Under the pieces are notes generated by a model that was not told the DNA's origin, did no database searches, and saw only the letters and a program-made list of their open reading frames with translations. This document shows positions 21,498 through 55,167 of a stretch of 64,000 bases of DNA, piece after piece. This DNA is from an uncultured Acidimicrobiaceae bacterium. Its GTDB lineage: Bacteria > Actinomycetota > Acidimicrobiia > Acidimicrobiales > RAAP-2. A program made the position numbers and the translations under genes. The stretch spans positions 683,492 to 747,491 of the forward strand of contig CAVTHY010000003.1 in NCBI GenBank assembly GCA_963734655.1, read 5' to 3'. Positions within the stretch are counted from its first letter, which is position 1, and the number at the start of each line of letters is the position of its first letter.

Positions 21498-21531
21498 GCT
21501 CGTCATTCGCACGTAAGATCGCATTGCGAAC
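21498..21531. promoter_or_regulatory. Tandem IclR-type operator pair 1
   Basis: GCTCG-TCATT-CGCAC (21498) and GATCG-CATTG-CGAAC (21517), upstream of SDR 21639. Confidence 0.65.
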
Positions 21532-21638
21532 AAATAACTATTGATTCGCGCAACGTCGTAGAGAATTCGTAGAAGGATTGGCAACGCCCACGTGAAAACC
21601 GTCATGACATCGTCACAGGCCAGACGGGATGGATCGAA

Positions 21639-22403
21639 GTGAGCGAATTCTCGCGACTTCTCGAAGGGCAAGTTGCCATTGTGACAGGCGGTTCCAATGG
21701 ACTTGGAGCCGCCATTGTTAGCCGCTTCGCCGAAAATGGCGCACGAGGTGCGATTATTGATTGGAAAACGAGTTCTGGGCAGCGACCACCAGATTCTTGG
21801 CACGTCTTTCAGGCTGACGTCCGCGACGCCGACTCTCTTCATTCGGCCTTCGACGAAATAGTCAAGGTCTTCGAAGGAGTCGACGTTGTCGTGGCGAACG
21901 CAGGCATCGTTCCTCCGTGGACGAGCACCGCTGAGATCGATCTCGAAACGTGGGAGAACGTCTTCGCCGTCAATTCTCGCGGCGTAATGCTGACGATCCG
22001 AGAGGCAGTTCGAGTGATGAGCGAACGCGGAGGATCCGTCGTCGCCATGTCCTCGCTCAACGGCTGGCGAGGAGATCCTCACATTCCTGCCTACGTAGCG
22101 AGCAAACACGCAGTTGTAGGTCTCGTACGCTCGGTCGCCCAAGATGTGGGGCACCGGGGTATACGAGTCAACGCGGTGGGTCCCGGTCCTATCGCCACCG
22201 ATGCGCTTCTCGAACGCATGGCCGATCGTTCGAAGTCGACCGGACTCGATGTGAAGACGGCCCTTGAGCGCGCCGGAGAGACCACCGCACTCAGACGCGT
22301 TGCAACTGCCGCCGAAGTGGCGAACGCGGTACTGTTCCTGGCGAGTGACCTTTCGAGTGGTATCACGGGCCAATTCCTCCCCGTCGACGCGGGAATATTG
22401 TGA
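21639..22403 (+). CDS. SDR family oxidoreductase
   Basis: TGGSNGLG, NAG, YVASK. Confidence 0.9.
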   Translation: MSEFSRLLEGQVAIVTGGSNGLGAAIVSRFAENGARGAIIDWKTSSGQRPPDSWHVFQADVRDADSLHSAFDEIVKVFEGVDVVVANAGIVPPWTSTAEIDLETWENVFAVNSRGVMLTIREAVRVMSERGGSVVAMSSLNGWRGDPHIPAYVASKHAVVGLVRSVAQDVGHRGIRVNAVGPGPIATDALLERMADRSKSTGLDVKTALERAGETTALRRVATAAEVANAVLFLASDLSSGITGQFLPVDAGIL

Positions 22404-22448
22404 TGGTCCCTAAGAAACCCCGCAACCAACTAGAAAGGTAAGTCCGCA

Positions 22449-23213
22449 ATGATCGATCTGAGCGAGAAGACGATTCTCTTAACAGGAGCCTCCGGTGACA
22501 TTGGATCGGCAACCGCAGCGGCGCTGGGCGAAGCCGGAGCGTTCGTCATCGCTCATTACGTGAAGGATCGCGACGGTGCTGAACTGGCCACCGCGGCCAT
22601 CGAGCCAGCTCGCAAAATGCTCATTCAAGGTGACTTCGCACAACCGGGCGGGGGTAGGGACCTGTGGAACCGGGCTCTGGAGTGGCGCGGTCACATCGAC
22701 GTGCTGGTCAACAATGCCGCCATCATGCCCGAGTCGTTCGTTGACGGTGACGATGCCCAGTGGGACGACGCTTGGGCGCGCGCGCTGCAAATCAACGTGG
22801 TCGAGCCAGCGAACCTCGTGCGGGGTGCGATTCGACATTTTCTCGGACGAGGCGGTGGCATCATCATCTCGCTATCGAGTTGGTCGGCGCAACAAGGCTC
22901 AACGATTCCTCAATTGACCGCGTACGCATCGACCAAAGCGGCCATCAAGGCGCTAACCCAAACGGTGGCTCGAGCGCACGCCAAAGATAACATCCTGGCC
23001 TACGTCGTCGCGCCCGGCATCGTTGATACAACCATGTCGCAGATCTCAGCGACATCGCGGGGTGGAATGGATGCACTGAGGGCAATCCTTCCTCTAGGTG
23101 AAATGGTTCCACCTAGAGAAGTTGGCGACCTCATCGCATTCCTCAGCACCGGAATGTGTCGACACCTGACCGGGGCGACCCTCGACATCAACGGCGCCGC
23201 CTACGTGCGCTGA
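22449..23213 (+). CDS. SDR family oxidoreductase (paralog of 48271-49035)
   Basis: TGASGDIG, NNAA, YASTK. Confidence 0.9.
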   Translation: MIDLSEKTILLTGASGDIGSATAAALGEAGAFVIAHYVKDRDGAELATAAIEPARKMLIQGDFAQPGGGRDLWNRALEWRGHIDVLVNNAAIMPESFVDGDDAQWDDAWARALQINVVEPANLVRGAIRHFLGRGGGIIISLSSWSAQQGSTIPQLTAYASTKAAIKALTQTVARAHAKDNILAYVVAPGIVDTTMSQISATSRGGMDALRAILPLGEMVPPREVGDLIAFLSTGMCRHLTGATLDINGAAYVR

Positions 23214-23300
23214 CTCGAATCCGGGAAGTGAGTCATCGGATCCTCCTCGTTGGCACCTCAGACGAGAGTGAAGATGACGGCTTCACGGGTACACCACGAG

Positions 23301-23678
23301 TCACGACAGATAAATGTCGTCGCCGTCTTCAAACGCGGGAGTATTGATGACGAGGTATGTCGCGGTGCCTTCGAGGTCGTAGAAGCAATTTCGCGGAATC
23401 ACGAGGGCGTCTCCGGTGGCGACTGATATTGGATCAGCACCCTGCAGATGAAAAACCAACTGTCCAAGCACTACGAAGTACAGGCGCGTCGATCGCTGTG
23501 ACGACAACCATTGATGACGACCGTCAATGTCAACCCTGGTGATACTCATCGAGGAGGTTGCTTCGTCGAGTCGCGCGACCGGGTACACGTGCGCTGAATT
23601 GCTAGGCTCCTCAATCGCCGCGAGGCCTCCTTGGCGAATGACTCGAACTCCGGGCGGCAGACTCCCCTCACCCATCAT
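23301..23678 (-). CDS. Cupin-fold protein
   Basis: YFVVLGQL...GDALVIPRN...YLVINTPAF; ATGA overlap with LLM gene. Confidence 0.6.
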   Translation of the reverse strand: MMGEGSLPPGVRVIRQGGLAAIEEPSNSAHVYPVARLDEATSSMSITRVDIDGRHQWLSSQRSTRLYFVVLGQLVFHLQGADPISVATGDALVIPRNCFYDLEGTATYLVINTPAFEDGDDIYLS

Positions 23679-24556
23679 TTCGCCGCACTACGGAGGACGC
23701 CGTACACGTGGGGCAACGACTCGGGTTTCGTCCAATCGACGTCGACGATGATTTCGTCGACGCCGCTTTCAACCAGAAGAGGCAGGGCGCGCGTAATCGA
23801 TTCCAAGTTGGCCGCCGAGTCGACAATGCGAAGTGTTACCCACACGAGCGACGGATCTTGATGGGATAGTTCCGCCGATCGGCGCACTTGAGTCACTTCA
23901 TCGCGAAGCGTCTCGTGGTCGAGGGAGAGCGCAGATTGCTGCGCCAACCAGCCATTGGCGATGGACCCCGCGCGAGAGAACGCGGTCTTCGAATGACCGC
24001 CCACGAGCATTGGAATGTCATGTGAGGGCCGAGGCCAGCACTGCACTCCTGACGGGATCGAATAGAACTCTCCCTCAAAGGCCTCCGGGCTTCCGGTCCA
24101 ACATCGTCGTAGAACCTCAATCCACTCCACGAACCTTCGCCCACGGGTTGCGAAGGGGACGTTCAGGGCGTCGTATTCATCCCCAAGCCACCCCACACCA
24201 ACCCCTAGCGTGAGTCGTCCTCCGCTCAGAACGTCGAGGGAAGCGGCTTCTTTGGCCAGGATCACAGGGTGTCGCATCGGCAGTACGAGTACCGCCGTAC
24301 CGATGACCGCACTTTTGGTCGCCGCGGCGATCGCGGTCAGGGAGATCATCGCATCGAAGTAGGGAGTGGTCGATGGCCAATCAGGTTTTCCATCAGCGGC
24401 GAACGGGTACCACGACGTCACCACTGACGGCATCACTACGTGATCGCTCACCCACAACGACTCAAAGCCCGCCGATTCGAGGTCTCTCGCCATCGCGCCA
24501 ATTCCTCGTTGGACGGGTAATGCACCACTATTAGGGACCTTCGCGCCAATCCTCAT
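23675..24556 (-). CDS. LLM-class F420-dependent oxidoreductase (Rv2161c-like)
   Basis: SLWVSDHVV, LDVLSGGRLTLGVGVGW, VGGHS. Confidence 0.88.
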   Translation of the reverse strand: MRIGAKVPNSGALPVQRGIGAMARDLESAGFESLWVSDHVVMPSVVTSWYPFAADGKPDWPSTTPYFDAMISLTAIAAATKSAVIGTAVLVLPMRHPVILAKEAASLDVLSGGRLTLGVGVGWLGDEYDALNVPFATRGRRFVEWIEVLRRCWTGSPEAFEGEFYSIPSGVQCWPRPSHDIPMLVGGHSKTAFSRAGSIANGWLAQQSALSLDHETLRDEVTQVRRSAELSHQDPSLVWVTLRIVDSAANLESITRALPLLVESGVDEIIVDVDWTKPESLPHVYGVLRSAAK

Positions 24557-24628
24557 ATCTTCACTCTTCCCCGCTCATCCGCCCGTATCGACGATCGACA
24601 TTGTTGGTACTTCACCGCACTCGCTTCG

Positions 24629-25420
24629 TCAGGTGATGCGAGACAGGAACTGCTTGGTGCGAGCATGTTGAGGTGCCATGAGCACCTCCTTCGAGGTCCC
24701 CGTCTCCACGATGACGCCACCATCCATGAAAATCACACGGTCGCCGACGTCGCGAGCGAAACTCATCTCATGAGTTACTACCACCATGGTCATGCCATCA
24801 TTGGCGAGCAACCTCATCACTTCGAGAACTTCCCCGACGATTTCAGGATCCAGGGCCGACGTCGGCTCGTCGAACAGCATCAGTTTGGGACGCATAGCGA
24901 GGGCACGCGCAATCGCGATGCGCTGCTGTTGACCGCCCGAGAGTTGTAGGGGGTAGCAGTCCGCCTTTTGTGTGAGACCGACTCTCTCGAGAAGCTGACG
25001 CGCGTGGGTCTCCGCCTCGGCTCGCGTCTCCCTCTTGAGTTGGACTGGCGCCTCCATAATGTTCTCCAGGGCCGTCATATGTGCGAACAAATTGAAGTTC
25101 TGGAATACCATGCCCATTTCGGTCCGCTGAGCAGCCAACTCGTTTGGTTTGAGATCAACATAGCGACCGTCTTGGACCTTTCGGCCGATGAGTTCACCAT
25201 CGAGGTAGACGCAGCCAGCCCCCGGCTTCTCTAGATAGTTGATGCACCGCAACATCGTGCTCTTGCCCGAACCCGAAGGCCCTATGAGGCACACCACTTC
25301 TCCGTAGGCCACCTCGAAATTTATGTCCTTGAGCACGCTGACCGCGCCGAAATCCTTGGACACGTGCTCCACCTTCAAAATGGGCTGACCGCTCGATGAG
25401 AGTGGCGAGCGATCTAGCAT
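24629..25420 (-). CDS. Polar amino acid ABC transporter ATP-binding protein
   Basis: [31 protein letters not shown]. Confidence 0.93.
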
Positions 25421-25465
25421 GAGTGACTCCAGCGGTGAGGACGACGATCGCATCCGGGTAGAAAG

Positions 25466-26482
25466 TTACACATATTGATCCGTCGATCCAATGAGTTTTT
25501 CTTCGCGATGCGTTCTGATTAGGCGAGAGAGGACGCTCGGCACCTCCGTGCGATTCCTCCCCCGACCAAAATACTTCTCAACGAAGTGTTGGCCAATCGA
25601 AAGAATCGTGGTGACGATCAAGTACCACAGACTTGCGACGACCAAGAGGGGAATGGTTTCGAAGTTCCGGGCGTAGATCAACTGGACCGAGTACAACAAC
25701 TCGGGTAGCGAGATCACACTCACGAGGCTGGTCCCCTTGAGCATTCCTATTGTTTGATTCCCAGTGGGCGGAATGATGACGCGCATCGCCTGGGGAAGAA
25801 CGATGCGGCGAAAGATTAGCCGTTTGGGCATACCCAACGCGAGAGCCGCTTCGCCTTGACCCGGGTCGACCGAAACGATCCCGGCACGAACGATCTCCGC
25901 CATATATGCGGCTTCGTTCAAACCCAATCCCAGCACGGCCGCCACCCAGATTGAGATCAGACTATTGGTACTGGCACTAAAGAAACCTGGGCCGAAGGGG
26001 ATACCCAGTGAAAGGCGAGGAACAAACGACGCAATATTGAACCAGAAGAGCAACTGTACGAGCAGTGGGGTCCCTCGGAACAACCAGATGTAACTCGACG
26101 CAGCGCTAGAGAGTACGAGATTCTTTGAGAGGCGCATCAACGCCAGAATCGTCCCGCCGACGATGCCTATCAACATAGCGATGACAGTGAGGTACAGCGT
26201 ACGAAACAGTCCCGCGAGCACGTCGGAACTGAAGAAATATTGGCCGACCACGCCCCACTGCAGACTGCTTGATGTCACCAGCAAGTGAATCAGCATCGCG
26301 AGGAGGACGAAGACAATCGCTACCATCACCCATCGGACGGAGTGGCGAACGACCTTCTTCGCCACTCCGTCCGATGAGAATCCTTCTTGTCCTCCTTGAC
26401 CCGATGCCTTCGGTTGCGTCACCACAATTTCATCCACCTTCATGTCCTTCTTGGCACAGCTGGACGAAGAATCGGCAGCCAC
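25466..26482 (-). CDS. Polar amino acid ABC transporter permease
   Basis: FRGTPLLVQL, EAAYMAEIVRAG, EAALALG. Confidence 0.92.
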   Translation of the reverse strand: MAADSSSSCAKKDMKVDEIVVTQPKASGQGGQEGFSSDGVAKKVVRHSVRWVMVAIVFVLLAMLIHLLVTSSSLQWGVVGQYFFSSDVLAGLFRTLYLTVIAMLIGIVGGTILALMRLSKNLVLSSAASSYIWLFRGTPLLVQLLFWFNIASFVPRLSLGIPFGPGFFSASTNSLISIWVAAVLGLGLNEAAYMAEIVRAGIVSVDPGQGEAALALGMPKRLIFRRIVLPQAMRVIIPPTGNQTIGMLKGTSLVSVISLPELLYSVQLIYARNFETIPLLVVASLWYLIVTTILSIGQHFVEKYFGRGRNRTEVPSVLSRLIRTHREEKLIGSTDQYV

Positions 26483-26514
26483 CGGATCAACATTGCCTCA
26501 AACTACGAGAAGCG

Positions 26515-27462
26515 TTATTTGTAGACGCCGGCCGACTTCACGAGACCATAGGTCAAACTCCATTGCTTCATGATCTTCGCGTACGCCCCCGTCGCAATGA
26601 GGTGGTTGATCGCCTGGCCCACCAGATTGGTGATTCCCGCCTTCTTGGCGATACCGACGCCTTCAGGGGTGGGCAGGTAGTTGAGCGGCTGCAGGACGAA
26701 CTGATGGGCCGTCTGCTGGATGAGCCACGACAGCTGATCCTCAGAACTCGAATACACCTGGTCGCGGCCACTGCTCACTGCGAGCTCCGCCGCAGAGTCT
26801 GACGGGAACGAAACGACGTTGACGTTCGCTTTGCCCGCAGACTTGCACGCCGGATCAACACCCTTGAGTTGTTCGATGAAGGCCGAGCCCTCGATGACCG
26901 CAATACTCTTGCCGCAGAGGTCAGTCGCCTTGGTGATCTTGAGCGAACTGCTCTTGGGTACGGCAAATCCAGTTCCCACGTTGTAGTAGGTCACGATGTC
27001 GATCTGCTTCAATCTCGGCGCCGTTGAAATGAACGACGTGAACGACGTGTTGTAGCGACCGTTCTGGAGCCCGGGGATAAATCCATCGAATGCGCCCGAC
27101 GCGGTTGCGTGCCACGAAAGGTTCAAGGTGGCCGCGACGGCCCTACCCAGGTCGACTTCCCAGCCCACCAGTTTTCCATTGACAACCAATTCGTCCGGCG
27201 GTGCGTCGTTGTACGTGATGTCCACCAGGCCCGTGGCCTTGACCGCCGCCGGCACCGCCGACGCCAGCGCTGCATCGGCCGACACCGTGGCGCCGTCAAT
27301 CTTCACTGCCGCCGCTGGTCCCGCCGCTCCTGCGGAGGAACCCATCACAAGCCCACCTAACGCGAGAGTTGATGCAGCGACGATCAGGGTACTGGCTGAG
27401 CGAATTCTCTTCGGTCGACGTCGATTCGAAGCACCCGCTCGGTTAGCAAATTCCTTGTTCAT
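26515..27462 (-). CDS. Polar amino acid ABC substrate-binding protein
   Basis: GWEVDL, FDGFIPGLQNGRY, DLCGK; N-terminal signal peptide. Confidence 0.85.
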   Translation of the reverse strand: MNKEFANRAGASNRRRPKRIRSASTLIVAASTLALGGLVMGSSAGAAGPAAAVKIDGATVSADAALASAVPAAVKATGLVDITYNDAPPDELVVNGKLVGWEVDLGRAVAATLNLSWHATASGAFDGFIPGLQNGRYNTSFTSFISTAPRLKQIDIVTYYNVGTGFAVPKSSSLKITKATDLCGKSIAVIEGSAFIEQLKGVDPACKSAGKANVNVVSFPSDSAAELAVSSGRDQVYSSSEDQLSWLIQQTAHQFVLQPLNYLPTPEGVGIAKKAGITNLVGQAINHLIATGAYAKIMKQWSLTYGLVKSAGVYK

Positions 27463-27532
27463 TGTGATTGATACCTCCCCTTGGCCCAACTCGATTAGCG
27501 GACTGATTAGTCACCATAGCGTCTAGACATTT

Positions 27533-27566
27533 GTTCGTCAAGCAAGCAAATGTACGCTATACGTGC
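27533..27566. promoter_or_regulatory. Tandem IclR-type operator pair 2
   Basis: GTTCG-TCAAG-CAAGC (27533) and GTACG-CTATA-CGTGC (27552); an extra box ACTCG-ATTAG-CGGAC lies at 27489. Confidence 0.65.
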
Positions 27567-27587: not shown

Positions 27588-28832
27588 TCACAACGTTGAG
27601 AATCTGTCAATTCGAAATGGCTCGAGATCAAAGGATGGCGCTCTTTCGAGAGTCAACTCGGCGAGAATCTGACCCATGAGAGGACCCGCGGTTAGGCCCA
27701 TGTGAGGAAAGAGACCCACCAGAAAACGCGGGTCCGCGGGAAGGGATCCGAGGATGGGTCCCAAGTCGGGCGTCGCATTTCCAATCCCCGCCCACGAGCG
27801 CACGATGAGTGCCCGAGCAAGCGACGGGACGGCGTGAAGGGCGACATCGAGGTTGTCCCTGAGCGATTCAATGTTGACGAGTGGATACAGGGAAGTCTCG
27901 TCAAGTCGTGCCGGCCAGCCACCGCCGATGAGAACGCCACCCGATCGTGCTTGTTTGAGTGTCAATCGCTTCCCAGCGAAGTAGACCAAGTGTTCGATGA
28001 GGGGCACCAGCGGTTCAGTGACGCTTACTTGGACGGGTTCGGAGGTGACGGGGAGGGGGAAACCCAACATCTTCGTGTGCTGCGCCAGTCCATCACCCGA
28101 GGCCAGCACGACCTGTCGAGCCTGAACAGTGCCTCGATCCGTGACCACACGAACATGGCGTTGGTCCAATTCGAAGTGCACGACGTTCGCCCGCGTCAGA
28201 ACTTGCGCACCCCGAACGACCGCCTGACGAGTGAACGCCGGTGCGGCCAACATCGGATTGGCCTTGCCTTCAATTGGGCAATATTCAGCACCAATGATCT
28301 TCTCGGATACGTACGGGGCAAGCTCTCGCAGTTCTCCTTGGTCCAACATTCGAGAATCGATTCCCGCCGATCGTTCGACCTCGACCTTGCGTTCGACCAG
28401 ACGCATCTGATCGGCATTGTCGACGAGCAGGAGACCTCCGCGCGTCTTGACTTCTAGATCAACCCCGAGTTCGTCAGAAAGGACGGACCACAATTGGAGA
28501 GAGTCGGCTAGGAATTTCAACGCGGGAAGAAATTGAGTGGCCCACTCCTCACCCAATTCGACGAAAGGTTGGTGCTGGATTTGTCCATGGAGACTTCCCG
28601 CGTTTCTCCCCGATGCTTCGGTACCGATATCGTTGCGATCCACGATGACGACACGCACACCGGCGCGAGCTAGGTGGTATGCCGTGGCGCTGCCGGTGAT
28701 CCCGCCTCCGATCACGGCGACGTCGAAGTCGCCCAGGTGCAAAAGCTTCGACTGATCACGAACCGGAGCGTGCCGTGAGAGAGTCATCGCATCGTCGGAA
28801 GGTTCGGCAGGTGTCGAATTCGGCGTCATCAT
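27588..28832 (-). CDS. FAD-dependent D-amino acid/opine dehydrogenase catalytic subunit (DAO family, HcnC/OoxB/LhpB-like)
   Basis: GGGITG, ASGRNAG, RSWAG, TPD..PILG. Confidence 0.85.
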   Translation of the reverse strand: MMTPNSTPAEPSDDAMTLSRHAPVRDQSKLLHLGDFDVAVIGGGITGSATAYHLARAGVRVVIVDRNDIGTEASGRNAGSLHGQIQHQPFVELGEEWATQFLPALKFLADSLQLWSVLSDELGVDLEVKTRGGLLLVDNADQMRLVERKVEVERSAGIDSRMLDQGELRELAPYVSEKIIGAEYCPIEGKANPMLAAPAFTRQAVVRGAQVLTRANVVHFELDQRHVRVVTDRGTVQARQVVLASGDGLAQHTKMLGFPLPVTSEPVQVSVTEPLVPLIEHLVYFAGKRLTLKQARSGGVLIGGGWPARLDETSLYPLVNIESLRDNLDVALHAVPSLARALIVRSWAGIGNATPDLGPILGSLPADPRFLVGLFPHMGLTAGPLMGQILAELTLERAPSFDLEPFRIDRFSTL

Positions 28833-28848: not shown

Positions 28849-28882
28849 GTACGCTACACGTGCAAATGTTCGGAGAGAGGAC
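28849..28882. promoter_or_regulatory. Tandem IclR-type operator pair 3
   Basis: GTACG-CTACA-CGTGC (28849) and GTTCG-GAGAG-AGGAC (28868) in divergent promoter. Confidence 0.65.
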
Positions 28883-36776: not shown

Positions 36777-36802
36777 CACTTCGTCCTTTCGCTCATCCTT
36801 CA

Positions 36803-47227: not shown

Positions 47228-47261
47228 GCCCGTGGTACGGGCAACTGTACGCATAGTGACA
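47228..47261. promoter_or_regulatory. Tandem IclR-type operator pair 6
   Basis: GCCCG-TGGTA-CGGGC (47228) and GTACG-CATAG-TGACA (47247), upstream of second ABC operon. Confidence 0.65.
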
Positions 47262-47458: not shown

Positions 47459-47779
47459 CTAGGAGTGTGAGGAAACTCCACTTTGACGATCGATTCGCAT
47501 GTCGGCCCGCACGGGAGTCATGCACGCGCGTGTGTTGGGAACACCGTCGACCACGACGAGGCAGTCATAACAGACGCCCATCCCGCAAAAGATTCCCCGG
47601 GGAGCCCCGTTGACGGTAGTTCGCGTCGACAAGCCTTCTAGGGCGACGAGGACCGCGGCGACTGACTCGCCATCGAAGGCCACCGTCGGTCGTCCGTCCA
47701 CCACGAGCGACACCTGAGGACCTCGACGAAGACCATCATCTTGAGAAAGTGGGAGGCGACCTCGGCGAAAACGCTTCAT
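47459..47779 (-). CDS. [2Fe-2S] ferredoxin-like small subunit (HcnA-like)
   Basis: GESVAA, GIFCGMGVCYDC...RAC; TACGAT 6 nt upstream of the ATG suggests a leaderless mRNA. Confidence 0.85.
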   Translation of the reverse strand: MKRFRRGRLPLSQDDGLRRGPQVSLVVDGRPTVAFDGESVAAVLVALEGLSTRTTVNGAPRGIFCGMGVCYDCLVVVDGVPNTRACMTPVRADMRIDRQSGVSSHS

Positions 47780-48270
47780 GGCTGCATCGTAATACGTGAC
47801 TCGACCCCACACGTCACCAGTTCACCCGCTCCTTGACGCCGTGATGGAATCCTCCTTCGACAATCGGTGTGTTCTCGTCGCTCGTCGTGACGAGCTCGAA
47901 TCCTCTGACGGCGAGGCCAAGGACCATGGGACGCCGTGCACTCATTCGGAACACTGTCGATCACGCCGGGCCGAAGTCGATGGCGAACTCGTGGTCGACG
48001 CTCGCGACGATGGTTGATGAACAATGCGACGAAACGGCCGACTACTATCAATCTTCACCACGGCGAAATCAACGCCGTCACCGCGAAATCACAGATCCAT
48101 TGACTTGCGCGAGAGGCGACGCGACCTCCAACCCTGAGGCGTGCGACGTTGTCACGGTCGCCACTATCTGTAGGGTGGACTTGCTCACGGACTCACCCGA
48201 CTCGTGTCGCCGTCGTCGATCTCCGCGAACATTTTTGCAATTCATTTCGCTCAAGATGCAAGGAGTCACC

Positions 48271-49035
48271 ATGATGGACTTAGCGACGAAGACGATTCTC
48301 CTGACGGGAGCCTCGAGTGGCATCGGAGCGGAGACCGCGAAGGTCCTCGGCGAGTCCGGCGCCCACGTCATCGCCCACTACGTCGACGATCTCGATGGGG
48401 TCGAGCACGCGACCAGAGATATTCCTGACGACCGCAAACTACTGCTCTCGGCCAATTTCGAAGAGCCCGGCTCCGCGAGACGGCTGTGGCGTGAAGCGCT
48501 TTCGTGGCGCGGTGTCGTCGACGTGTTGGTCAACAACGCCGCAATCATGCCCGAGACGGCACTGTCCGGCAGCGACGAGGAGTGGGACCAGGGATGGGCT
48601 CGTGCGTTGCAGGTCAATCTCGTCGAGCCGTCGAGTCTGACGAGGGAAGCAGTACTGCACTTCGTCGACACGGGTGGCGGCATCGTCATCTCGCTCTCGA
48701 GTTGGGCGGCTCAACGAGGCTCGGCGATCGCCACGTTGTCCGCGTACGCGGCGACCAAGTCTGCGATCAAGGCACTCACTCAAACCATCGCCCGCAACTA
48801 CGCCAAGGACGGCGTCCTCGCGTACGTGGTCGCACCCGGCATCGTTCGTACGTCCATGTCGCTCATTTCTGCCACCGCACGAGGAGGAGACGACGCCGTG
48901 AAGGCGATTTTGCCCTTAGGGGACCTGGTGCCGACGTCGGAAGTCGCCAACATGGTCGCATTCCTCTCGAGCGGTCTCTGCCGGCATCTCACCGGTGCGA
49001 CCATCGATATGAACGGCGCGGCCTACATTCGTTGA
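48271..49035 (+). CDS. SDR family oxidoreductase (paralog of 22449-23213)
   Basis: AGGAG RBS; TGASSGIG, NNAA, YAATK. Confidence 0.9.
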   Translation: MMDLATKTILLTGASSGIGAETAKVLGESGAHVIAHYVDDLDGVEHATRDIPDDRKLLLSANFEEPGSARRLWREALSWRGVVDVLVNNAAIMPETALSGSDEEWDQGWARALQVNLVEPSSLTREAVLHFVDTGGGIVISLSSWAAQRGSAIATLSAYAATKSAIKALTQTIARNYAKDGVLAYVVAPGIVRTSMSLISATARGGDDAVKAILPLGDLVPTSEVANMVAFLSSGLCRHLTGATIDMNGAAYIR

Positions 49036-49091: not shown

Positions 49092-49125
49092 GTCGTAATA
49101 TCGTACAATTGTGCGAAATGCGTAC
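49092..49125. promoter_or_regulatory. Tandem IclR-type operator pair 7
   Basis: GTCGT-AATAT-CGTAC (49092) and GTGCG-AAATG-CGTAC (49111), upstream of CoA-transferase operon. Confidence 0.7.
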
Positions 49126-49218
49126 AAACTAGGAGGGACATCGTGGTTTCGTATCCCGTAACGTCCCTCATTTTCAGAGGAGCAGCGTGACACAGTCTCC
49201 AAGGACGATGCGCTAGTC

Positions 49219-50082
49219 GTGGCTCGTTTTGTTCCACTTCACGAGGCCATTAGGGATCAGGTCCACGATGGCGACGCCGTAGCTCTCGAAGGATTTACCC
49301 ACTTGATTCCGTTTGCGGCGGGTCACGAGATCATTCGCCAACGACGTCGCGACCTCACGCTGATCCGCATGACGCCCGACATCATTTACGACCAGCTCAT
49401 CGGCATGGGGTGCGCCAAGAAGCTGGTGTTTTCGTGGGCGGGCAATCCCGGCGCCGGTTCGCTGCACCGATTTCGAGACGCCGTCGAGAACGCGACACCT
49501 CACGAACTCGCAATCGAGGAGCACAGTCACGCGGGTATGGCCGCTCGGTACCAGGCGGGCGCGTCGGGATTACCCTTCGGCGTCTTGCGCGGTTACCGCG
49601 GAACTGATCTCTACGACGTGACCAAATCCATCAAGGAGATCACGTGCCCCTTCACCGGCGAGATTCTCGCCGCCGTGCCAGCCCTCACACCTGATGTCGG
49701 TGTGATCTGCGCCCAACAGGCCGATCGGCGAGGGAACGTCATGATGTGGGGAATCACTGGTGTTCAGAAAGAAGTGGTGCTGGCTTCGAAGCGATCTGTC
49801 GTACTCGTTGAGGAGGTCGTCGACGAATTCTCACCGCAGAGGAATGGCGTCGTTCTGCCCGCGTGGGTCATCGACACGATCTCGGTGGTGCCGTCGGGCC
49901 CGCACCCTTCCTACTCTCAGGGCTACTCGCAACGCGACAATCCCTTTTACGCGTCGTGGGAGCGCATCAGCCGGGACCGCGAGGTTTTCCTCACCTGGAT
50001 GAACGAGCACGTGCTGGACACCGTCGACCACGCTGGCTACCTCGCGTCACTCGAGAGTGCGCGTGATGGGAGCGTCTCATGA
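49219..50082 (+). CDS. CoA-transferase subunit A (glutaconate / 3-oxoadipate CatI type)
   Basis: EGFTHLIPFAAGHEIIRQ, RMTPD, GNPG.GSLHR, EEHSH. Confidence 0.87.
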   Translation: MARFVPLHEAIRDQVHDGDAVALEGFTHLIPFAAGHEIIRQRRRDLTLIRMTPDIIYDQLIGMGCAKKLVFSWAGNPGAGSLHRFRDAVENATPHELAIEEHSHAGMAARYQAGASGLPFGVLRGYRGTDLYDVTKSIKEITCPFTGEILAAVPALTPDVGVICAQQADRRGNVMMWGITGVQKEVVLASKRSVVLVEEVVDEFSPQRNGVVLPAWVIDTISVVPSGPHPSYSQGYSQRDNPFYASWERISRDREVFLTWMNEHVLDTVDHAGYLASLESARDGSVS

Positions 50083-50849
50083 CGACGCGACCACCCGCTA
50101 TTCAGTGGACGAGCGATGAGATGATGACGGTTGCCGCCGCTCGAGAACTAGCCAATGGTTCGGTCTGTTTCGTGGGAATCGGTCTGCCGAGCACCGCCGC
50201 CAACCTGGCGCGGGCCATTCACGCTCCCGACGTAGTCTTGATCTACGAATCCGGGTGCATCGGGGCGAAGCCGGACCATGTTCCTCCGTCCATTGGCGAC
50301 GGCATCCTCAGCGAGACGGCCGACGCGGTCATCTCAGTTCCGGAGATATTCACCTACTGGCTCCAAGCGGGGCGGATCGACGTGGGATTCTTGGGCGCGG
50401 CGCAAGTCGATCGCTGGGGCAATATCAATACCACCGTGATCGGTGACTACGGTCATCCCAAAGTGCGACTACCCGGTGCCGGAGGCGCACCCGAGATAGC
50501 GACGTCGTGCAAGAGCGTCATCATCACGCTGCGCCATGGACCACGAGCCCTCGTCGAGAAGCTTGATTTCGTGACCTCCTTGGGGCATGGTGACGGGCAA
50601 CACTCGCGCCAGCGCTGGGGAATGCCCGGAGCCGGTCCACAAGTCATCATCACCGACCTCGGCGTCCTTCGTCCCGATCATGAGTCCGGGGAGTTCTCTC
50701 TCGTCGCAGTACATCCCGGCGTCGATGTGAGCGACGTGGTGAGCGCCACCGGATGGGCGCTGCACGTGGCGCCCACTCTGATCGAAACACCAGCGCCAAC
50801 AGAACTCGAACTGGCGGCGTTGCGCCAATTCGTGGGTCACGAACACTAA
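50079..50849 (+). CDS. CoA-transferase subunit B
   Basis: FVGIGLP, LIYESG (catalytic Glu), RLPGAGGAPEIA; ATGA overlap. Confidence 0.87.
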   Translation: MTTRPPAIQWTSDEMMTVAAARELANGSVCFVGIGLPSTAANLARAIHAPDVVLIYESGCIGAKPDHVPPSIGDGILSETADAVISVPEIFTYWLQAGRIDVGFLGAAQVDRWGNINTTVIGDYGHPKVRLPGAGGAPEIATSCKSVIITLRHGPRALVEKLDFVTSLGHGDGQHSRQRWGMPGAGPQVIITDLGVLRPDHESGEFSLVAVHPGVDVSDVVSATGWALHVAPTLIETPAPTELELAALRQFVGHEH

Positions 50850-50868
50850 GAACCTACGGGAGGACTCG

Positions 50869-52050
50869 ATGAACGAGGTCTACATTGTCGATGCTGTACG
50901 CACCCCCATGGGGCGTATCGGAGGCTCCCTCGCCCACGTGCGCCCCGATGACCTAGCCGCCACGGCACTCTCGGCGCTGATGGCGCGACAGACTCACTCC
51001 ACGACCACAGACATCTCTGGCGTCGTGCTCGGAAACTCCAATGGCGCCGGCGAGGAGAACCGCAACGTGGCGCGGATGGCGCTGCTTCTCGCGGGATTCC
51101 CGACGTCAGTACCGGGAGCGAGCGTCAATCGACTCTGTGGCTCTGGGATGGAAGCCGTCCTCCAGGCGAGCCGTGAAATCGCAGTCGGCGACGGCGACCT
51201 GGTCATCGCCGGTGGGGTCGAATCAATGTCGCGGGCACCGTGGGTGGTGGCCAAACCCGATCGTGCCTTTGCACGAGACCACCAGACGATGTTTTCGACG
51301 ACCCTCGGCTGGCGCATGATCAATCCTGAGATGCGCTCCGAGTGGACGGTGGCCCTCGGAGAAGGGGCAGAAATACTCGCCGACGAGTTCAAGATCTCGC
51401 GCGAGGAGCAAGACGTTTTTGCCGTACGCAGCCACCAACGCGCGGCGGCGGCGTGGAAGAGCGGGGCTTTCGAGAACGAATGCATTGCGGTGCCCTCCGC
51501 CGACCTGAGCATGGACGAATGTGTTCGCCCCGAATCCAGCATTGAGGCGTTAGCCCGATTACGACCAATCTTTCGTGACAACGGTACGGTGACGGCGGGG
51601 AACGCGTCACCGATGAATGACGGGGCCGCCGCGATGCTCTTGATGAGCGAACGCGCGGTGAACGAGCGCGGTGTGACGCCTCTGGCAAGAATCGCCAGTC
51701 GCGCTGTCACTGCCGTTGAGCCACAGCGTTACGGCGTGGGGCCCGTCGAAGCGGCGCAGATCGCGCTGGAACGTGCGGGCATTGGCTGGAGCGATCTCGC
51801 TGTGGTGGAACTCAATGAGGCGTTCGCCTCGCAGTGCCTCGCGTGTCTCAAATCCTGGCCCGAACTCGACTCGTCCATCGTCAACCCCCTCGGTGGGGCT
51901 ATTGCGCTGGGACACCCCATTGGCGCCTCGGGAGCACGACTCGTCACCACATTGGCCCACGAACTTCGCCGAGGCGGAGGTGGCTGGGGACTCGCCGCAA
52001 TGTGCATCGGTGTGGGACAAGGTATTGCGGTGGTCCTCGACGCCCGCTAG
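50869..52050 (+). CDS. Thiolase (PcaF/PaaJ-like)
   Basis: VRPDDLAA, NRLCGSG, NEAF, GHPIGASG, CIGVGQG. Confidence 0.9.
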   Translation: MNEVYIVDAVRTPMGRIGGSLAHVRPDDLAATALSALMARQTHSTTTDISGVVLGNSNGAGEENRNVARMALLLAGFPTSVPGASVNRLCGSGMEAVLQASREIAVGDGDLVIAGGVESMSRAPWVVAKPDRAFARDHQTMFSTTLGWRMINPEMRSEWTVALGEGAEILADEFKISREEQDVFAVRSHQRAAAAWKSGAFENECIAVPSADLSMDECVRPESSIEALARLRPIFRDNGTVTAGNASPMNDGAAAMLLMSERAVNERGVTPLARIASRAVTAVEPQRYGVGPVEAAQIALERAGIGWSDLAVVELNEAFASQCLACLKSWPELDSSIVNPLGGAIALGHPIGASGARLVTTLAHELRRGGGGWGLAAMCIGVGQGIAVVLDAR

Positions 52051-52135
52051 TCCCTCCATAAACCTGTGGCGTGGCCGAAATCACCCGCCGATCGATCGGC
52101 TGCTTCTCGTGTGCTTCAGCAGAAGCGAGAGAGAG

Positions 52136-53140
52136 TCAACTCGAACCCGAAGGTGTCGCCTCGAGGTTGAAGACTTCCGGCGACTCTTGTCGGACGTGTT
52201 CCAGTGTCATCAAGGCGAGATCGCGCTTCTCGCAATTCTCTACCCACTCTTCTAGAGGCAATCGGCGATGTACCGATTCGGCGACGCGGGCCACCAAGTC
52301 CGGCGACCACTCATCGTGCTGACCTCGTTCGGCACCCATGCGAGCGTACGCCGGCCCGAGCTTCTTGGCGTGCGACTCGATGCCGCCACGAGTATTGAGA
52401 TCCGCTGTCTCGAATGGCCCGATCACCGACCAGCGCCGTCCCAGCCCATCGTGCACGATGCGGTCGATGTCTTCGGGTTCGGCGACACCATCGCGAACAA
52501 GACAGTAGGCCTCACGAAGAAGCGCTCCTTGTAGTCGGTTGTAGACGAAGCCTTCGATTTCCTTCTTGACTTCGATGACCGTGAGTCCCGCGGAGGCCAT
52601 CAGCGTCCCTGTCGCGCTCACGGTCTGAGACGAAGTAAACGGCGCGGGGACCAGTTCGACCACGGGAAGAAGATACGGAGGATTTGCGGGATGCGCGACG
52701 ATGCATCGTGAACGGCTGTCGAGAGTGGCCGCGAATGCCGAGCACGTGATCGCCGACGAGGAACTCGCGAAGACGGCCTCCGACGGCGCCAAGGATTCCA
52801 AGGTCTCGAAGAGTTCTCGCTTGAGTTCCAGCGACTCAGGGGCGCATTCTTGGATGAATCGCGCAGCGCCAACCGCCGTAGCGAGATCTGACTCGAACGT
52901 CACCAACCCGAGTACGTGTGTGGGATCCTTCAGGAGTTCAGCCGCGTGAAGTCGCGAAACCACCCCTTCGAACTCGCGGCGCGCGTCGTCGAGTCGCCCA
53001 GGATCGAGGTCGTAGACGACGACCCTCTCGCGCGATCGCGCAAATACGGTCGCCCAGCCCACGCCGATGCTGCCGGCACCGATGACCGCGATATGACCCG
53101 CGTGCTCTTCTTTCACGTCGCGCCTTTCCGTAGGGTCCAT
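52136..53140 (-). CDS. 3-hydroxyacyl-CoA dehydrogenase family (lambda-crystallin / carnitine dehydrogenase-like)
   Basis: GAGSIG, QECAPE, HPANPP, GFVYNRLQ, GLGRRW..GPFE. Confidence 0.82.
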   Translation of the reverse strand: MDPTERRDVKEEHAGHIAVIGAGSIGVGWATVFARSRERVVVYDLDPGRLDDARREFEGVVSRLHAAELLKDPTHVLGLVTFESDLATAVGAARFIQECAPESLELKRELFETLESLAPSEAVFASSSSAITCSAFAATLDSRSRCIVAHPANPPYLLPVVELVPAPFTSSQTVSATGTLMASAGLTVIEVKKEIEGFVYNRLQGALLREAYCLVRDGVAEPEDIDRIVHDGLGRRWSVIGPFETADLNTRGGIESHAKKLGPAYARMGAERGQHDEWSPDLVARVAESVHRRLPLEEWVENCEKRDLALMTLEHVRQESPEVFNLEATPSGSS

Positions 53141-53980
53141 CTAACGAGTGGTCACCGCAGAGTAACGAAGTCCCGTCTCGATGTCGGCCGCCGTCGACAT
53201 GAGGAGTGGTGCGAATGCCGTCAAGTCCTCAACGGACTTGCGTCCGATATGGGTCGAGAGATTGATCGCTCCGATGACGGCGCCCTGCGCGTCCTTCACG
53301 GGGACGGCCAGGGCGATCAGACCTTCTTCGAGTTCCTGATTCACGAAGGCGAATCCTTGTTCGCGCACCTTTTCGAGTTGCGACAAGAACTTCGACTCGT
53401 CGACGACGGACCCGGCGCGCATGGGTTTCAACTCATAGTGATCGAGGTAGGAGCGCAATTCGGTCTCCGAGAGGTGCGCCAGCATCGCTCGCCCCAATGA
53501 AGTGGCGTACGCCGGACGACGAGCGCCAATGTTGACCGAAATGGTCATCAACGAAGGACCGGCAACCCGCGCAACGTAGACGACGTCCCCGCGATCCAAT
53601 ATCGCAGCCTCGCTGGACTCGCCCGTCACCGCGACGAGCTCTTCGAGCTTGGGCAACGCCACGTCCGGGAACGACAGCGACGAAAGGTACGCGTAGCCCA
53701 GTTCGAGGACCTGAGGAGTCAGTTCGAAGCGATTGAATTTCTCGCGAACGTAGCCGAGTTCAGACAACGTCAACAGAAAGCGTCGCACGGTGGCCCTCGT
53801 CAATCCGACCAATTGTGCGACTTCGGAAACGGTCATGGAAGGACGTTCCGCGTTGAAAACGCGCATTATTTCGAGGCCCCGCTCCAAGGACTGCACGAAA
53901 TCACGCGAGCGACCATTGGCCTTCTCGGGTTCCTTCGGGCTGTCCGTCAACACTTCTTCGTCGCTGTGGGGCTGGGTCAT
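53141..53980 (-). CDS. IclR family regulator, PcaR/PobR subfamily
   Basis: FVQSLERGL, GLTRAT.RRFLLTL, AYATSLGR, QELEEGL. Confidence 0.92.
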   Translation of the reverse strand: MTQPHSDEEVLTDSPKEPEKANGRSRDFVQSLERGLEIMRVFNAERPSMTVSEVAQLVGLTRATVRRFLLTLSELGYVREKFNRFELTPQVLELGYAYLSSLSFPDVALPKLEELVAVTGESSEAAILDRGDVVYVARVAGPSLMTISVNIGARRPAYATSLGRAMLAHLSETELRSYLDHYELKPMRAGSVVDESKFLSQLEKVREQGFAFVNQELEEGLIALAVPVKDAQGAVIGAINLSTHIGRKSVEDLTAFAPLLMSTAADIETGLRYSAVTTR

Positions 53981-54158
53981 GGGGTGCAAACCTCGGGAGC
54001 TAGGTCATTGGAGGAACGGGAATTCGTCACCTCGATGGCACGGATACGGTCGCTCAAAACTAGCCCCCCAAAGCGGTCAAAATGTCCATCGAAAACAACA
54101 TTGGTTGCAACATCCCACGGGGCCGACCGCCTTGCTCGCCCACCTCAGTCTCATTAGT

Positions 54159-54192
54159 ATACGCATAGCGGATAATTGTCCGTATAGCGATC
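54159..54192. promoter_or_regulatory. Tandem IclR-type operator pair 8 (between IclR and VOC genes)
   Basis: ATACG-CATAG-CGGAT (54159) and GTCCG-TATAG-CGATC (54178). Confidence 0.7.
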
Positions 54193-54240
54193 CATCGGGA
54201 GGTAGTCACCGTGGTGCAGGTTCGACGTCGGTACGGCACG

Positions 54241-55167
54241 ATGACCGGCCTCGACCATATTGGTCTGGGCGTCTCCCACATGGAAGCGTCTGTCGCATTC
54301 TTCGCCGGATTGGGTTTCGAGGATGTCGCATTTGACTATCAAGGGCCTTTACCAGGACTTTCAGCAGTCACCGGTCATGATGTGACTGAGGCCCGGGTCG
54401 TCATGGTCCGAAGTTCGAATCCCACCGTGCTGGGTCGTGCGTCGATCAAATTGGTCCAACTCACGAACAGGACTCAGCCACCCCAGCCCGCCGGGTTCGC
54501 GTGGGGCGAACTCGGTATTTGCGAGGTCTGTATTCACGTCCACGGCCAAGCTGACTTCTATCGTGACCTGGTTTCACGAGGTCACACCGGCATCATGGAG
54601 CCCAATGAGGCGGATCTCCCCCCCTACGAGACGCATTGCGGTCTCTCCTACGTGGTGGACCCGGACGGCGCGAAGATCGAACTGATCGAGTGGTCCACCC
54701 TCGAGAGCGGCTGGCCCGTCAGCGATGGTCCCCAGGGCGTGAACCACGTGGCCTTTGGTTGCACCGATTTAGCGACGACCCAAGCCTTTTACCAATCGCT
54801 CGGCTTCACCGGGAAGCTGTTCGAATCAGATGGATACTTCGAACCGATGCATCCATGGTTCGCCCCGAGAACTCCCCCGCGTCAGCAGATGATGCTCTTG
54901 ACCACACCTCACGGCGGAGGACTCGAACCAGTGCAACAGTTCCCTCCTTCGCCCGACATGCGCGGCGAGTGGGGCCACTTCGGTACTTTCGAGTTCGCCA
55001 TTGGAGCTCGGTCTCTGGAATGCGCCATCGAACATCTCACCCAGCTGGGTATTCGCACGCTCGATGAACCAGCGATCATCGACCTCGGAAACGGTGCGTC
55101 ATGGCGTTACGTCTATTTTCAGGACCCAGACGATCTCTACGTCTGCGTGAGCGAAGTTCGCGCGTAG
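54241..55167 (+). CDS. Two-domain VOC (glyoxalase/extradiol dioxygenase-like) protein
   Basis: LDHIGLGV, DPDGAKIEL, VNHVAF, YFQDPD. Confidence 0.75.
   Translation: MTGLDHIGLGVSHMEASVAFFAGLGFEDVAFDYQGPLPGLSAVTGHDVTEARVVMVRSSNPTVLGRASIKLVQLTNRTQPPQPAGFAWGELGICEVCIHVHGQADFYRDLVSRGHTGIMEPNEADLPPYETHCGLSYVVDPDGAKIELIEWSTLESGWPVSDGPQGVNHVAFGCTDLATTQAFYQSLGFTGKLFESDGYFEPMHPWFAPRTPPRQQMMLLTTPHGGGLEPVQQFPPSPDMRGEWGHFGTFEFAIGARSLECAIEHLTQLGIRTLDEPAIIDLGNGASWRYVYFQDPDDLYVCVSEVRA

Follow-up and report, generated by a model that had tools for sequence, protein, structure and literature searches.

Tandem palindromic operators point to a PcaR-clade IclR protein as regulator of a 34-kb catabolic island in an uncultured Acidimicrobiaceae bacterium

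This study concerns a catabolic gene island of an uncultured Acidimicrobiaceae bacterium, which is located on contig CAVTHY010000003.1 of the metagenome-assembled genome (MAG) GCA_963734655.1 and was analyzed within a stretch of 64,000 nucleotides (positions 683,492 to 747,491 of the contig; hereafter, the window, to which all coordinates refer unless a locus or contig is named). The island spans 34 kb (21.4–55.2 kb of the window) and represents 1.3% of the genome, which is 2.53 Mb in size and 73% complete. The best overall explanation for its organization, to which we assign a probability of roughly 0.8, is that the IclR-family protein encoded in the island regulates the island's transcription units via paired palindromes, in the service of a so far uncharacterized catabolism of a nitrogen compound. 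An earlier note on this DNA, made from the sequence alone, had claimed eight tandem operators of the PcaR/PobR type with an exact 19-bp spacing, which were thought to connect about 30 scattered genes to the only regulator of the island and to one pathway matching no described route.

The proposed sites were recovered without exception. All 16 boxes are present at the positions given in that note, the two boxes of every pair (8/8) lie exactly 19 bp apart from start to start, and each pair is intergenic and located upstream of at least one transcription unit (Table 1). Alignment of the boxes revealed a 17-bp palindrome, T-GTNCG-N5-CGNAC-A, as the repeated unit, and two such units separated by 2 nt give rise to a recurrent CAAATG/CAATTG junction. 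Position counts for 14 boxes (T-G-T/C-N-C-G-N5-C-G-N-A/G-C-A) correspond to a GTNCG-N5-6-CGNAC-type motif, with conserved contact positions and variable N positions.

The frequency of the paired motif in the genome was evaluated by a bare-consensus test, in which nothing was fitted to the sites (GTNCG-N5-CGNRC, each box matching at least 6 of 8 positions and both boxes together at least 15 of 16). For a spacing of 19 bp, six pairs were detected in the 2.53-Mb genome, five of them inside the island, whereas each other spacing between 12 and 40 bp yielded zero to five pairs genome-wide and none in the island. The paired motif is thus not equally frequent elsewhere in this genome. In a leave-one-out analysis applying a 39-nt composite position weight matrix (PWM), seven of the eight pairs were placed among the top 15 of approximately five million positions, and the pair at 47228 (pair 6) obtained rank 1386. 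This oriented matrix strongly penalizes pair 6; however, the fairer symmetric 17-mer PWM, for which pair 6 was left out of the training and the tandem score is the sum of two boxes at a distance of 19 bp, still leaves it weak (Table 1). In the latter model, the genome's seven best positions are the seven remaining island pairs (28–36 bits), and everything else reached at most 16 bits. Hence, seven pairs are robust and one is weak. With the symmetric PWM, no pair was detected in the gaps 32401–32642 and 55168–55504. A third box following 27552, as well as pairs featuring spacings of 17, 21, 23, and 28 bp, were rejected as one strong box plus noise. Partnerless strong single boxes (17–19.5 bits) occur elsewhere in the genome (G000:C2:664241, C2:664401, C3:452550, C2:564631, and C3:524848) and may represent sites of other IclR paralogues, single-box targets, or chance matches.

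Approximately 29 out of the 31 island genes reside in units carrying or sharing a pair, with about 12 units being assigned to seven to eight pairs. Around 20 genes are located behind robust pairs and six behind the weak pair 6; the gene for the SnoaL-like protein, on the one hand, and those for the IclR protein and the 3-hydroxyacid dehydrogenase (3HCDH), on the other, each share a pair with a divergent unit at a distance of 180–200 nt. The IclR gene encodes the only recognizable regulator between 21.4 and 55.2 kb, as had been proposed, and the assumption of an IclR regulon comprising about 30 genes is supported in that the same arrays precede orthologous genes in other organisms. Nearly all island genes are single-copy in the genome.

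The operator design itself is already known. In the survey of Suvorova and Gelfand (2021; PMC8222616), GTNCG-N5-6-CGNAC represents one of two main motif classes of IclR proteins, including PcaR, PcaU, PobR, CatR, HmgR, and others. For the regulators of 94 orthologous groups, over half of those studied, tandem palindromes were predicted there with centres 18–22 nt apart, mostly 19–21 nt, and were interpreted as sites where a tetramer contacts a single DNA face. The island shares box consensus, palindromic structure, and tandem spacing with group 1 of these authors (TGT-11-ACA / GTNCG-N5-6-CGNAC), in agreement with the earlier class assignment of the boxes. However, since the reported distances are mostly 19–21 nt, the exact 19-bp spacing is the family norm rather than the special feature implied by the earlier note. 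IclR sites mostly reside 20–80 nt upstream of the start codon, and the targets of an IclR protein are usually its own gene plus one or two neighbouring operons; regulogs range between 1 and 55 COGs, more than half of them holding at most ten (PMC8222616). Compared to this norm, the island, with seven to eight pairs, about 12 units, and about 29 genes, falls at the large end of the range, and only the number of separately wired units stands out. Two full palindromes also distinguish the island from PcaU and PobR, which use one palindrome and an extra direct half-site (PMC8222616).

Foreign loci encoding regulator orthologues were scanned with a matrix trained on the window only (nine loci, approximately 144 kb, IclR proteins 57–94% identical, hits of at least 12 bits). 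At a distance of 19 bp, 21 tandem hits were obtained versus about 0.2 expected from the non-island background of the studied genome, and about 0.9 hits per other spacing were counted in the same loci. The regulator is 94% identical to the IclR protein of 'Acidimicrobiaceae bacterium palsa_511', and orthologues of 57–69% identity were found in Pseudonocardiales, Trebonia, other Actinomycetota MAGs, and the cultured Patulibacter medicamentivorans I11 and P. defluvii DM4; orthologues of further island genes are present in most of these loci. The hits occupy equivalent gaps, namely those between the genes for the VOC-superfamily protein (VOC) and the luciferase-like oxidoreductase (LLM), between the aldehyde dehydrogenase (ALDH) and omega-transaminase (AT3) genes, upstream of the GcvPA-like gene, and between VOC and IclR. 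In the VOC/LLM gap, runs of up to four boxes, each exactly 19 bp from the next, were detected (loci L018, L023, and L033), and the ALDH/AT3 gap also carries pairs in P. defluvii (L022, positions 2302 and 2371), a MAG (L020, 8199), and Actinomadura (L033, 19022). Pair 8 is kept in the palsa_511 MAG (L016, 2892; 21.2 bits), differing at degenerate positions only. Two further loci were reached via VOC: Actinomadura scrupuli, featuring four boxes in a row between LLM and VOC as well as the ALDH/AT3 pair, and a Mycolicibacterium contig carrying a pair between IclR and VOC. Altogether, tandem arrays are conserved beside orthologous regulators in ten foreign loci; the recognition helix (R62, R66, R67, and T71) is invariant across loci, and IclR is the only transcription factor family travelling with the sites. 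Since arrays, gaps, and recognition helix are conserved, indirect support for the IclR protein as the reader of the sites is strong. Orthologous IclR genes with the same 19-bp arrays in equivalent gaps are thus present in Actinomadura, Patulibacter, Mycolicibacterium, and several Actinomycetota MAGs.

In Actinomadura scrupuli, the orthologous genes form a compact block, in which IclR-SDR-SDR-LLM is divergent from VOC-ABC-alpha-beta-DHDPS-gamma, followed by ALDH, which is divergent from the contiguous genes AT3-NADK-like-GcvPA-GcvPB-3HCDH. Patulibacter and the MAGs L018 and L026 hold the same gene sets, the order of the island genes for the Fer2_4 gamma subunit, ABC2, alpha, beta, and DHDPS2 corresponds to that in L018, L026, and Actinomadura (L033), and a pair of short-chain dehydrogenase (SDR) genes follows LLM in the orthologous clusters. 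Judged from gene content and order, the island is a rearranged, scattered, and expanded copy of a compact core of approximately 18 genes found in at least three actinobacterial classes. Core members are VOC, the F420-type LLM, two SDRs, an amino-acid ABC importer, an alpha-beta-gamma amine dehydrogenase, a DHDPS-like enzyme, a succinate-semialdehyde-type (SSADH-type) ALDH, the omega-transaminase, a NADK-like kinase, a GcvP-like decarboxylase, and 3HCDH. Additions to the core comprise ABC1, the divergent DAO1/DHDPS1 genes (also found in L023), the SnoaL-like gene with the divergent gamma-alpha fusion gene, alanine dehydrogenase, a duplicated SDR (65% identity between SDR2 and SDR3), and the CoA-transferase/thiolase genes.

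VOC represents the most constant partner of the regulator, with orthologues of 60–91% identity beside IclR in all loci. Its family comprises more than 450 clusters, all of them unnamed, with members also in Microbacterium and Salinibacterium records. No sequence match for VOC was obtained in the PDB, and the Atlas and a large protein search returned generic labels only. An AF2 model (pTM 0.79) matched two-domain glyoxalase I, GLOD4, and PcpA best, with TM scores of 0.52–0.58, which indicate the fold class only. Likewise, the NADK-like protein has no PDB or NCBIfam match and bears the Atlas label 'ATP-NAD kinase family'. The LLM protein matches TIGR03619, which is F420-dependent. Both GcvP-like proteins pass the NCBIfam equivalog cutoffs (405.6 > 364 for GcvPA and 491.8 > 441 for GcvPB); housekeeping gcvT-gcvP and gcvH genes were found elsewhere in the genome, making the island pair a second copy, and a full-length GcvP is encoded separately from the cluster in Actinomadura, so that a role of the pair as housekeeping P-protein was rejected. 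AT3 was identified as an omega-transaminase, and the alanine dehydrogenase is a true member of its family in Pfam and NCBIfam.

Parts of the island resemble the trans-4-hydroxy-L-proline route and the flavin-containing opine dehydrogenase OdhABC, with which they have in common that one cluster combines an ABC importer of the amino-acid type with genes for an alpha-beta-gamma dehydrogenase, a DHDPS-family enzyme, and an ALDH (PMC4113996, PMC4575208). The hydroxyproline pathway consists of 4HypE, D-Hyp dehydrogenase, Pyr4H2C deaminase, and KGSA dehydrogenase (PMC4113996), and three of these four enzyme families are represented in the importer-dehydrogenase-DHDPS-ALDH block. The dehydrogenase family also holds opine dehydrogenases, HCN synthase, and L-proline dehydrogenase, gamma-alpha fusions being known from the L-proline dehydrogenase branch (PMC4575208). 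In the island, all three subunits were identified, i.e., a DAO-type beta subunit, a Pyr_redox_2+BFD [2Fe-2S] alpha subunit, and a Fer2_4 gamma subunit or gamma-alpha fusion, and these were assigned to two sets (Table 1). The DAO and DHDPS families are present, with no model or residue test separating D-Hyp enzymes from those acting on opines or other amines; for DHDPS2, one distant PDB match only was obtained. The binding proteins of both importers resemble generic polar/cationic amino-acid binders. As a full explanation, the hydroxyproline route was rejected: a proline-racemase-family epimerase (PF05544) was found neither in the 73% complete genome nor in the compact Actinomadura cluster, the ALDH is of the SSADH and not the KGSA type (378.6 vs. 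the cutoff of 770 for the GucD-type KGSA dehydrogenase model, and 351 vs. 750 for 2,5-dioxovalerate dehydrogenase), and about ten genes are left unexplained. VOC, LLM, the two SDRs, AT3, the NADK-like, GcvPA-like, and GcvPB-like proteins, and 3HCDH are conserved genes without a place in the hydroxyproline or opine routes.

The CoA-transferase subunits and the thiolase possess the Pfam architecture of PcaIJF (subunit A without an NCBIfam hit at 1e-10) and are 62–65% identical to same-genus copies located beside a 45% identical, PcaR-like IclR paralogue. Neighbours of these copies encode hydroquinone 1,2-dioxygenase, an ALDH, a maleylacetate-reductase-type iron alcohol dehydrogenase, and an intradiol dioxygenase. 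Because of the kinship to copies beside these aromatic-pathway genes, the island genes were regarded as probably PcaIJF-type, and the route encoded by the island probably terminates in a 3-oxoadipate-like acid.

In a literature search, no paper describing the cluster was found; to this extent, the claim that the island follows no described route holds for the cluster as a whole, but not for its sub-modules, which match three of four hydroxyproline enzyme families and PcaIJF-type 3-oxoadipate thiolysis. Our best inference for the substrate is an imported amino-acid-like compound that carries, besides a secondary or D-amine, a terminal amine. The core would import this nitrogen compound, the flavin/Fe-S dehydrogenase would oxidize its secondary or D-amine, and transamination linked to pyruvate would remove the terminal amine; in the studied genome, alanine dehydrogenase would regenerate the pyruvate. 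The resulting aldehyde would then be oxidized, and in this genome, a 3-oxoacid would be fed to the PcaIJF-type CoA-transferase and thiolase. We tentatively propose, at somewhat below even odds, that the core of about 18 genes represents an undescribed actinobacterial route for such a compound (an opine-like or cyclic secondary amine, for example), with new chemistry at the VOC, NADK-like, and GcvP-like steps and with a PcaR-descended regulator whose remodelled pocket (Glu124, Arg155, and Ala223) senses a new effector.

Alternatively, the island may consist of several independent catabolic modules that share the regulator only via one common intermediate: two amine-dehydrogenase/lyase/importer sets, an omega-amine/GcvP-like module, a VOC/LLM/SDR module, and PcaIJF. 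This is a possibility to be taken seriously, although the odds are against it. The two importer/dehydrogenase/DHDPS sets are indeed paralogous (37–47% identical), and the compact clusters of Actinomadura, Patulibacter, L018, and L026 lack ABC1, DAO1/DHDPS1, the SnoaL-like gene, the fusion, alanine dehydrogenase, and PcaIJF. In same-genus genomes, PcaIJF is part of another regulon, which is aromatic and possesses an IclR protein of its own. In Mycolicibacterium, furthermore, an IclR-VOC-SDR nucleus is joined to quite different genes. However, about 18 genes with the same operators stay together in three actinobacterial classes, which, for the core at least, favours a single function. The idea of a single pathway is accordingly only partly supported, in that this core travels together, while ABC1, DAO1/DHDPS1, the SnoaL-like gene with the fusion, alanine dehydrogenase, and the CoA-transferase/thiolase genes are lineage-specific.

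The regulator features an HTH_IclR domain (PF09339, 1.1e-16) and an IclR_C effector domain (PF01614, 6.6e-38). Its score for the NCBIfam model TIGR02431 (pcaR_pcaU) is 281.2 bits, followed by 135.6 bits for the next family, BhcR. The nearest structures (2ia2, 5w1e, 2g7u, and 8eju) represent two Rhodococcus RHA1 IclR proteins, S. coelicolor PobR, and P. putida PcaR. By these matches, the regulator belongs to the PcaR clade. Like P. putida PcaR (E 1e-50 to 8eju), it is associated with 15-bp GTTCG-type boxes and, as predicted here, controls PcaIJF-type genes; in contrast to the PcaR group, which also includes PcaU and PobR of Acinetobacter, CatR of Rhodococcus, and PcaR of C. glutamicum, its targets in the island are amine/amino-acid-type genes, with no ring-cleavage genes among them. 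PcaR contacts its ligand through Tyr151, Ser178, Ser240, Asn257, Ser259, Asn140, Leu172, Thr177, and Val230 (bioRxiv 10.1101/2023.07.27.550818). Six of these nine residues are kept in the island regulator (Tyr135, Thr160, Ser161, Val213, Asn240, and Ser242), including the equivalents of Tyr151, Ser178, Asn257, and Ser259, i.e., the Tyr, two Ser, and Asn that hold carboxylates in PcaR. The full PcaR-type pocket is not present, with Asn140 replaced by Glu124, Leu172 by Arg155, and Ser240 by Ala223. These changes are common to island-type orthologues from three classes (Patulibacter featuring Met at position 155), and same-genus paralogues beside aromatic genes keep the PcaR residues (Leu, Ser). 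Since the changes are shared by the orthologues and not by these paralogues, the regulator represents a distinct orthologous group, which probably senses a different, still carboxylate-bearing ligand.

A strict sigma-70-like promoter scan of the 34-kb island returned four hits, three of which coincide with pairs (1, 2, and 6), and looser candidates overlap pairs 7 and 8 (Table 1). The second box of pair 3 (GTTCGGAGAGAGGAC) includes the ribosome-binding site of DHDPS1 ahead of its ATG at 28887. This geometry is the one expected for a repressor. Most likely, a dimer of dimers of the IclR protein occupies two adjacent 17-bp palindromes, whose centres, being 19 bp apart, would place both dimers on the same DNA face. 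Seven, probably eight, pairs would lie on or next to core promoters, several of them serving two divergent units. Without effector, the tetramer would most likely block RNA polymerase, and binding of a carboxylate-bearing pathway intermediate to the C-terminal domain would cause the complex to be released or re-shaped. Autoregulation is probable, because the regulator's own operon shares pair 8. Two adjacent dimer sites for one tetramer, with the effector altering the complex, are likewise known from TtgV of P. putida and BlcR of Agrobacterium; however, both are far more distant (E 1e-11 to 1e-13), recognize other box sequences, and act on one target promoter each. TtgV is the only IclR member solved with DNA (2XRO, cited in bioRxiv 10.1101/2023.07.27.550818).

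Several points weigh against regulation of the island by this protein in the manner proposed. By score alone, pair 6 is not distinguishable from chance. Moreover, the gap between the divergent Fer2_4 and SDR3 genes (47813–48270), the sole exception already recognized in the earlier note, contains no pair (best tandem score −9.2) and one 8-bit single box at 47938, although the alpha-beta enzyme should need Fer2_4. The regulator remains 3.5 bits under the trusted PcaR/PcaU/PobR cutoff of 284.75 bits, and the PWMs were trained on the sites of the earlier reader, so that the independent parts of the analysis are the bare-consensus test and the foreign-locus scans. Furthermore, overlap with the -35/-10 region is no proof of repression, given that a site of this kind serves P. 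putida PcaR for the activation of pcaIJ, and the motif alone cannot name the clade member bound, because paralogues of 42–45% identity use a near-identical operator.

The same regulator and sites might accordingly function mainly in effector-dependent activation or in dual regulation, as PcaR does at pcaIJ, which appears unlikely overall. In P. putida, a dimer of dimers of PcaR occupies an operator that overlaps -35/-10; with beta-ketoadipate, PcaR increases RNA polymerase complex formation and activates pcaIJ, while repressing its own promoter (bioRxiv 10.1101/2023.07.27.550818). The island regulator belongs to the same clade, and several island promoters possess poor -35 or -10 hexamers that might need help. 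However, pairs 3, 7, and 8 overlie the -10/+1 region or the ribosome-binding site itself, as is typical of repression. The characterized actinobacterial members of this motif class, namely Rhodococcus CatR, C. glutamicum PcaR, and S. coelicolor PobR, are known as repressors. For PobR, negative regulation has been described (PMC5814911).

Binding of the sites by a different protein, either another IclR paralogue of this genome or one encoded in the unassembled 27%, is considered very improbable. The incompleteness of the genome leaves room for such a paralogue, and the 42–45% identical proteins mentioned above do recognize almost the same tandem operator in related genomes; yet, the two further true IclR genes present here are located far off and encode proteins only 25–27% identical to the island regulator, and in every foreign locus, the sites adjoin an orthologue of the latter. 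The idea that the repeats match by chance or are left over from a repeated or mobile element is effectively refuted, for although the sites were picked by eye and pair 6 scores at chance level, they are exclusive to the island and to the 19-bp spacing, vary at N but not at contact positions, and recur at orthologous gaps where the proteins are only 50–70% identical.

The regulatory design adds nothing new to the knowledge of IclR proteins; the value of the regulon is a practical one. By the operator signature, the genes belonging together are clearly set apart: one regulator, one operator, and about 18 co-inherited genes, including three enzyme types without an assigned reaction in this context. 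The same regulon occurs in compact form in the cultured Actinomadura scrupuli, Patulibacter defluvii DM4, and P. medicamentivorans I11, and is thus testable. In addition, biosensor design might profit from a PcaR-clade sensor whose pocket is altered and whose operator is known.

Table 1. Operator pairs, candidate promoters, and genes of the island (window coordinates; scores and genome ranks of pairs according to the symmetric PWM).
Feature	Position	Strand	Remarks
Operator pair 1	21498–21531 (boxes 21498, 21517)		upstream of SDR1-SDR2; 28.4 bits, rank 7
Promoter, pair 1	21491–21519	+	TTGACT-17-TAAGAT; strict hit, overlaps pair
SDR1, SDR2	21639–22403, 22449–23213	+	Pfam adh_short
ABC1 operon	23301–27489	−	binding protein (26515–27489), permease, ATPase, LLM (23675–24556), 125-aa protein (23301–23678); Pfam
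Operator pair 2	27533–27566		upstream of ABC1 operon; 35.7 bits, rank 1
Promoter, pair 2	27541–27513	−	TTGACG-17-TATGGT; strict hit, overlaps pair
DAO1	27588–28832	−	beta subunit, set 1; divergent from DHDPS1; Pfam DAO
Operator pair 3	28849–28882		fills the 54-bp divergent DAO1/DHDPS1 gap; 29.9 bits, rank 5
DHDPS1	28887–29831	+	Pfam DHDPS
SnoaL-like	29871–30350	−	divergent from fusion; Pfam
Operator pair 4	30512–30545		between SnoaL-like and gamma-alpha fusion subunit; 33.9 bits, rank 2
Fer2_4+Pyr_redox_2+BFD fusion	30661–32400	+	gamma-alpha fusion, set 1; Pfam
AT3 operon	32643–39324	−	AT3 (37921–39324), NADK-like (36803–37909), GcvPA-like (35385–36908), GcvPB-like (33832–35469), alanine dehydrogenase (32643–33764); Pfam, NCBIfam
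Operator pair 5	39343–39376		between AT3 and ALDH; 31.7 bits, rank 4
ALDH	39403–40899	+	succinate-semialdehyde type; TIGR01780, 671.6 > cutoff 646.35
DHDPS2	40907–41842	−	Pfam
DAO2	41864–43099	−	beta subunit, set 2; Pfam
Alpha subunit	43096–44547	−	set 2; Pfam
ABC2 ATPase, permease, binding protein	44666–47123	−	Pfam
Operator pair 6 (weak candidate)	47228–47261		upstream of ABC2-alpha-beta-DHDPS2 operon; 5.6 bits, rank 49 of 2.5 million
Promoter, pair 6	47272–47244	−	TTGACA-17-TACAGT, 10/12 matches; best strict hit of the island, encloses pair
Fer2_4 gamma subunit	47459–47812	−	set 2; Pfam
SDR3	48271–49035	+	adh_short; without detectable operator pair upstream
Promoter, pair 7	at 49073		TTGCTA-17-TAATAT; looser candidate, overlaps pair
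Operator pair 7	49092–49125		upstream of CoA-transferase A/B and thiolase; 33.8 bits, rank 3
CoA-transferase A, B, and thiolase	49219–52050	+	PcaIJF-type; Pfam
3HCDH	52136–53140	−	3-hydroxyacid dehydrogenase, lambda-crystallin type; Pfam, NCBIfam
IclR regulator	53141–53980	−	279 aa, PcaR/PobR clade; co-oriented with 3HCDH
Promoter, pair 8	at 54132		TTGCTC-17-TAGTAT; looser candidate, overlaps pair
Operator pair 8	54159–54192		between IclR-3HCDH and VOC; 29.3 bits, rank 6
VOC	54211–55167	+	two-domain VOC-superfamily protein; Pfam Glyoxalase

Within the island, the 125-aa protein of the ABC1 operon gave a sub-threshold cupin signal only and shows no kinship to the 125-aa ORF of the Mycolicibacterium locus. 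In the stretch 49131–49218, just after pair 7, a strong Shine-Dalgarno sequence (AGGAGGG) was found before a GTG at 49143 opening an ORF of only 15 codons; a second short ORF follows and then the CoA-transferase A start at 49219, whose ribosome-binding site is poor. Either a leader peptide or an indel affecting the true 5' end could account for this arrangement. To the left of the island, a MarR regulator gene (19620–20144) is divergent from an MMPL transporter gene (17400–19550) and forms a separate unit without an IclR-type pair.

Further observations were made in the foreign loci. In the same-genus locus L029 (G025), the 45% identical IclR paralogue, located beside PcaIJF and hydroquinone/hydroxyquinol genes, possesses its own tandem 19-bp pairs (5923–5976, 10398–10450, and 15456–15509; up to 33.6 bits with the window matrix), one of them before a LivK-type importer and one beside two ORFs without a Pfam family. 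Locus L023 encodes a second IclR protein (11138–11914, 46% identical) beside DAO1/DHDPS1, with a strong single box at 11951 (17.3 bits), which hints that the accessory DAO1/DHDPS1 module has its own regulator elsewhere. The Mycolicibacterium locus L034 carries pairs at 3341, 7375, and 18345, and several of the genes joined to its IclR-VOC-SDR nucleus lie behind tandem pairs, these partners being an M20 peptidase and MFS transporter, a sugar-type ABC importer, a DmfA2-like protein, and an amino-acid permease. The VOC orthologue of L020 (10797–11615) contains an in-frame stop, i.e., a sequencing error or a decaying copy.

In the studied genome, the housekeeping gcvT and gcvP genes outside the window (G000:C3:65353-67457) match Pfam in several consecutive pieces and different frames, suggesting frameshifts, which would be due either to assembly indels or to the genes being pseudogenes; if these are assembly errors, further genes of the MAG may be affected. 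The G+C content of the island is 0.56–0.63 compared to 0.65–0.68 in the left flank and 0.55 beyond the island, with changes at 20000–22000 and 54000–58000; the window contains no tRNA gene. An archaeal origin of the DNA, to which a weak match to HVO_A0261_N had pointed, was rejected in view of Shine-Dalgarno sites and relatives among actinobacteria. Because the best regulator homologues among 36 same-genus genomes are only 42–45% identical, the island was classified as accessory, and its absence from these congeners together with the drop in G+C suggests acquired DNA. No sequencing run was found to contain half of the stretch. Near-identical, short, low-depth contigs of the region 52100–55200 were found in sediment, permafrost, and soil metagenomes, and two pieces of about 210 nt (3HCDH and VOC) in a permafrost metatranscriptome library, from which neither transcription nor habitat is firm. 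One of the sediment metagenome contigs spans operator pair 8 unchanged.

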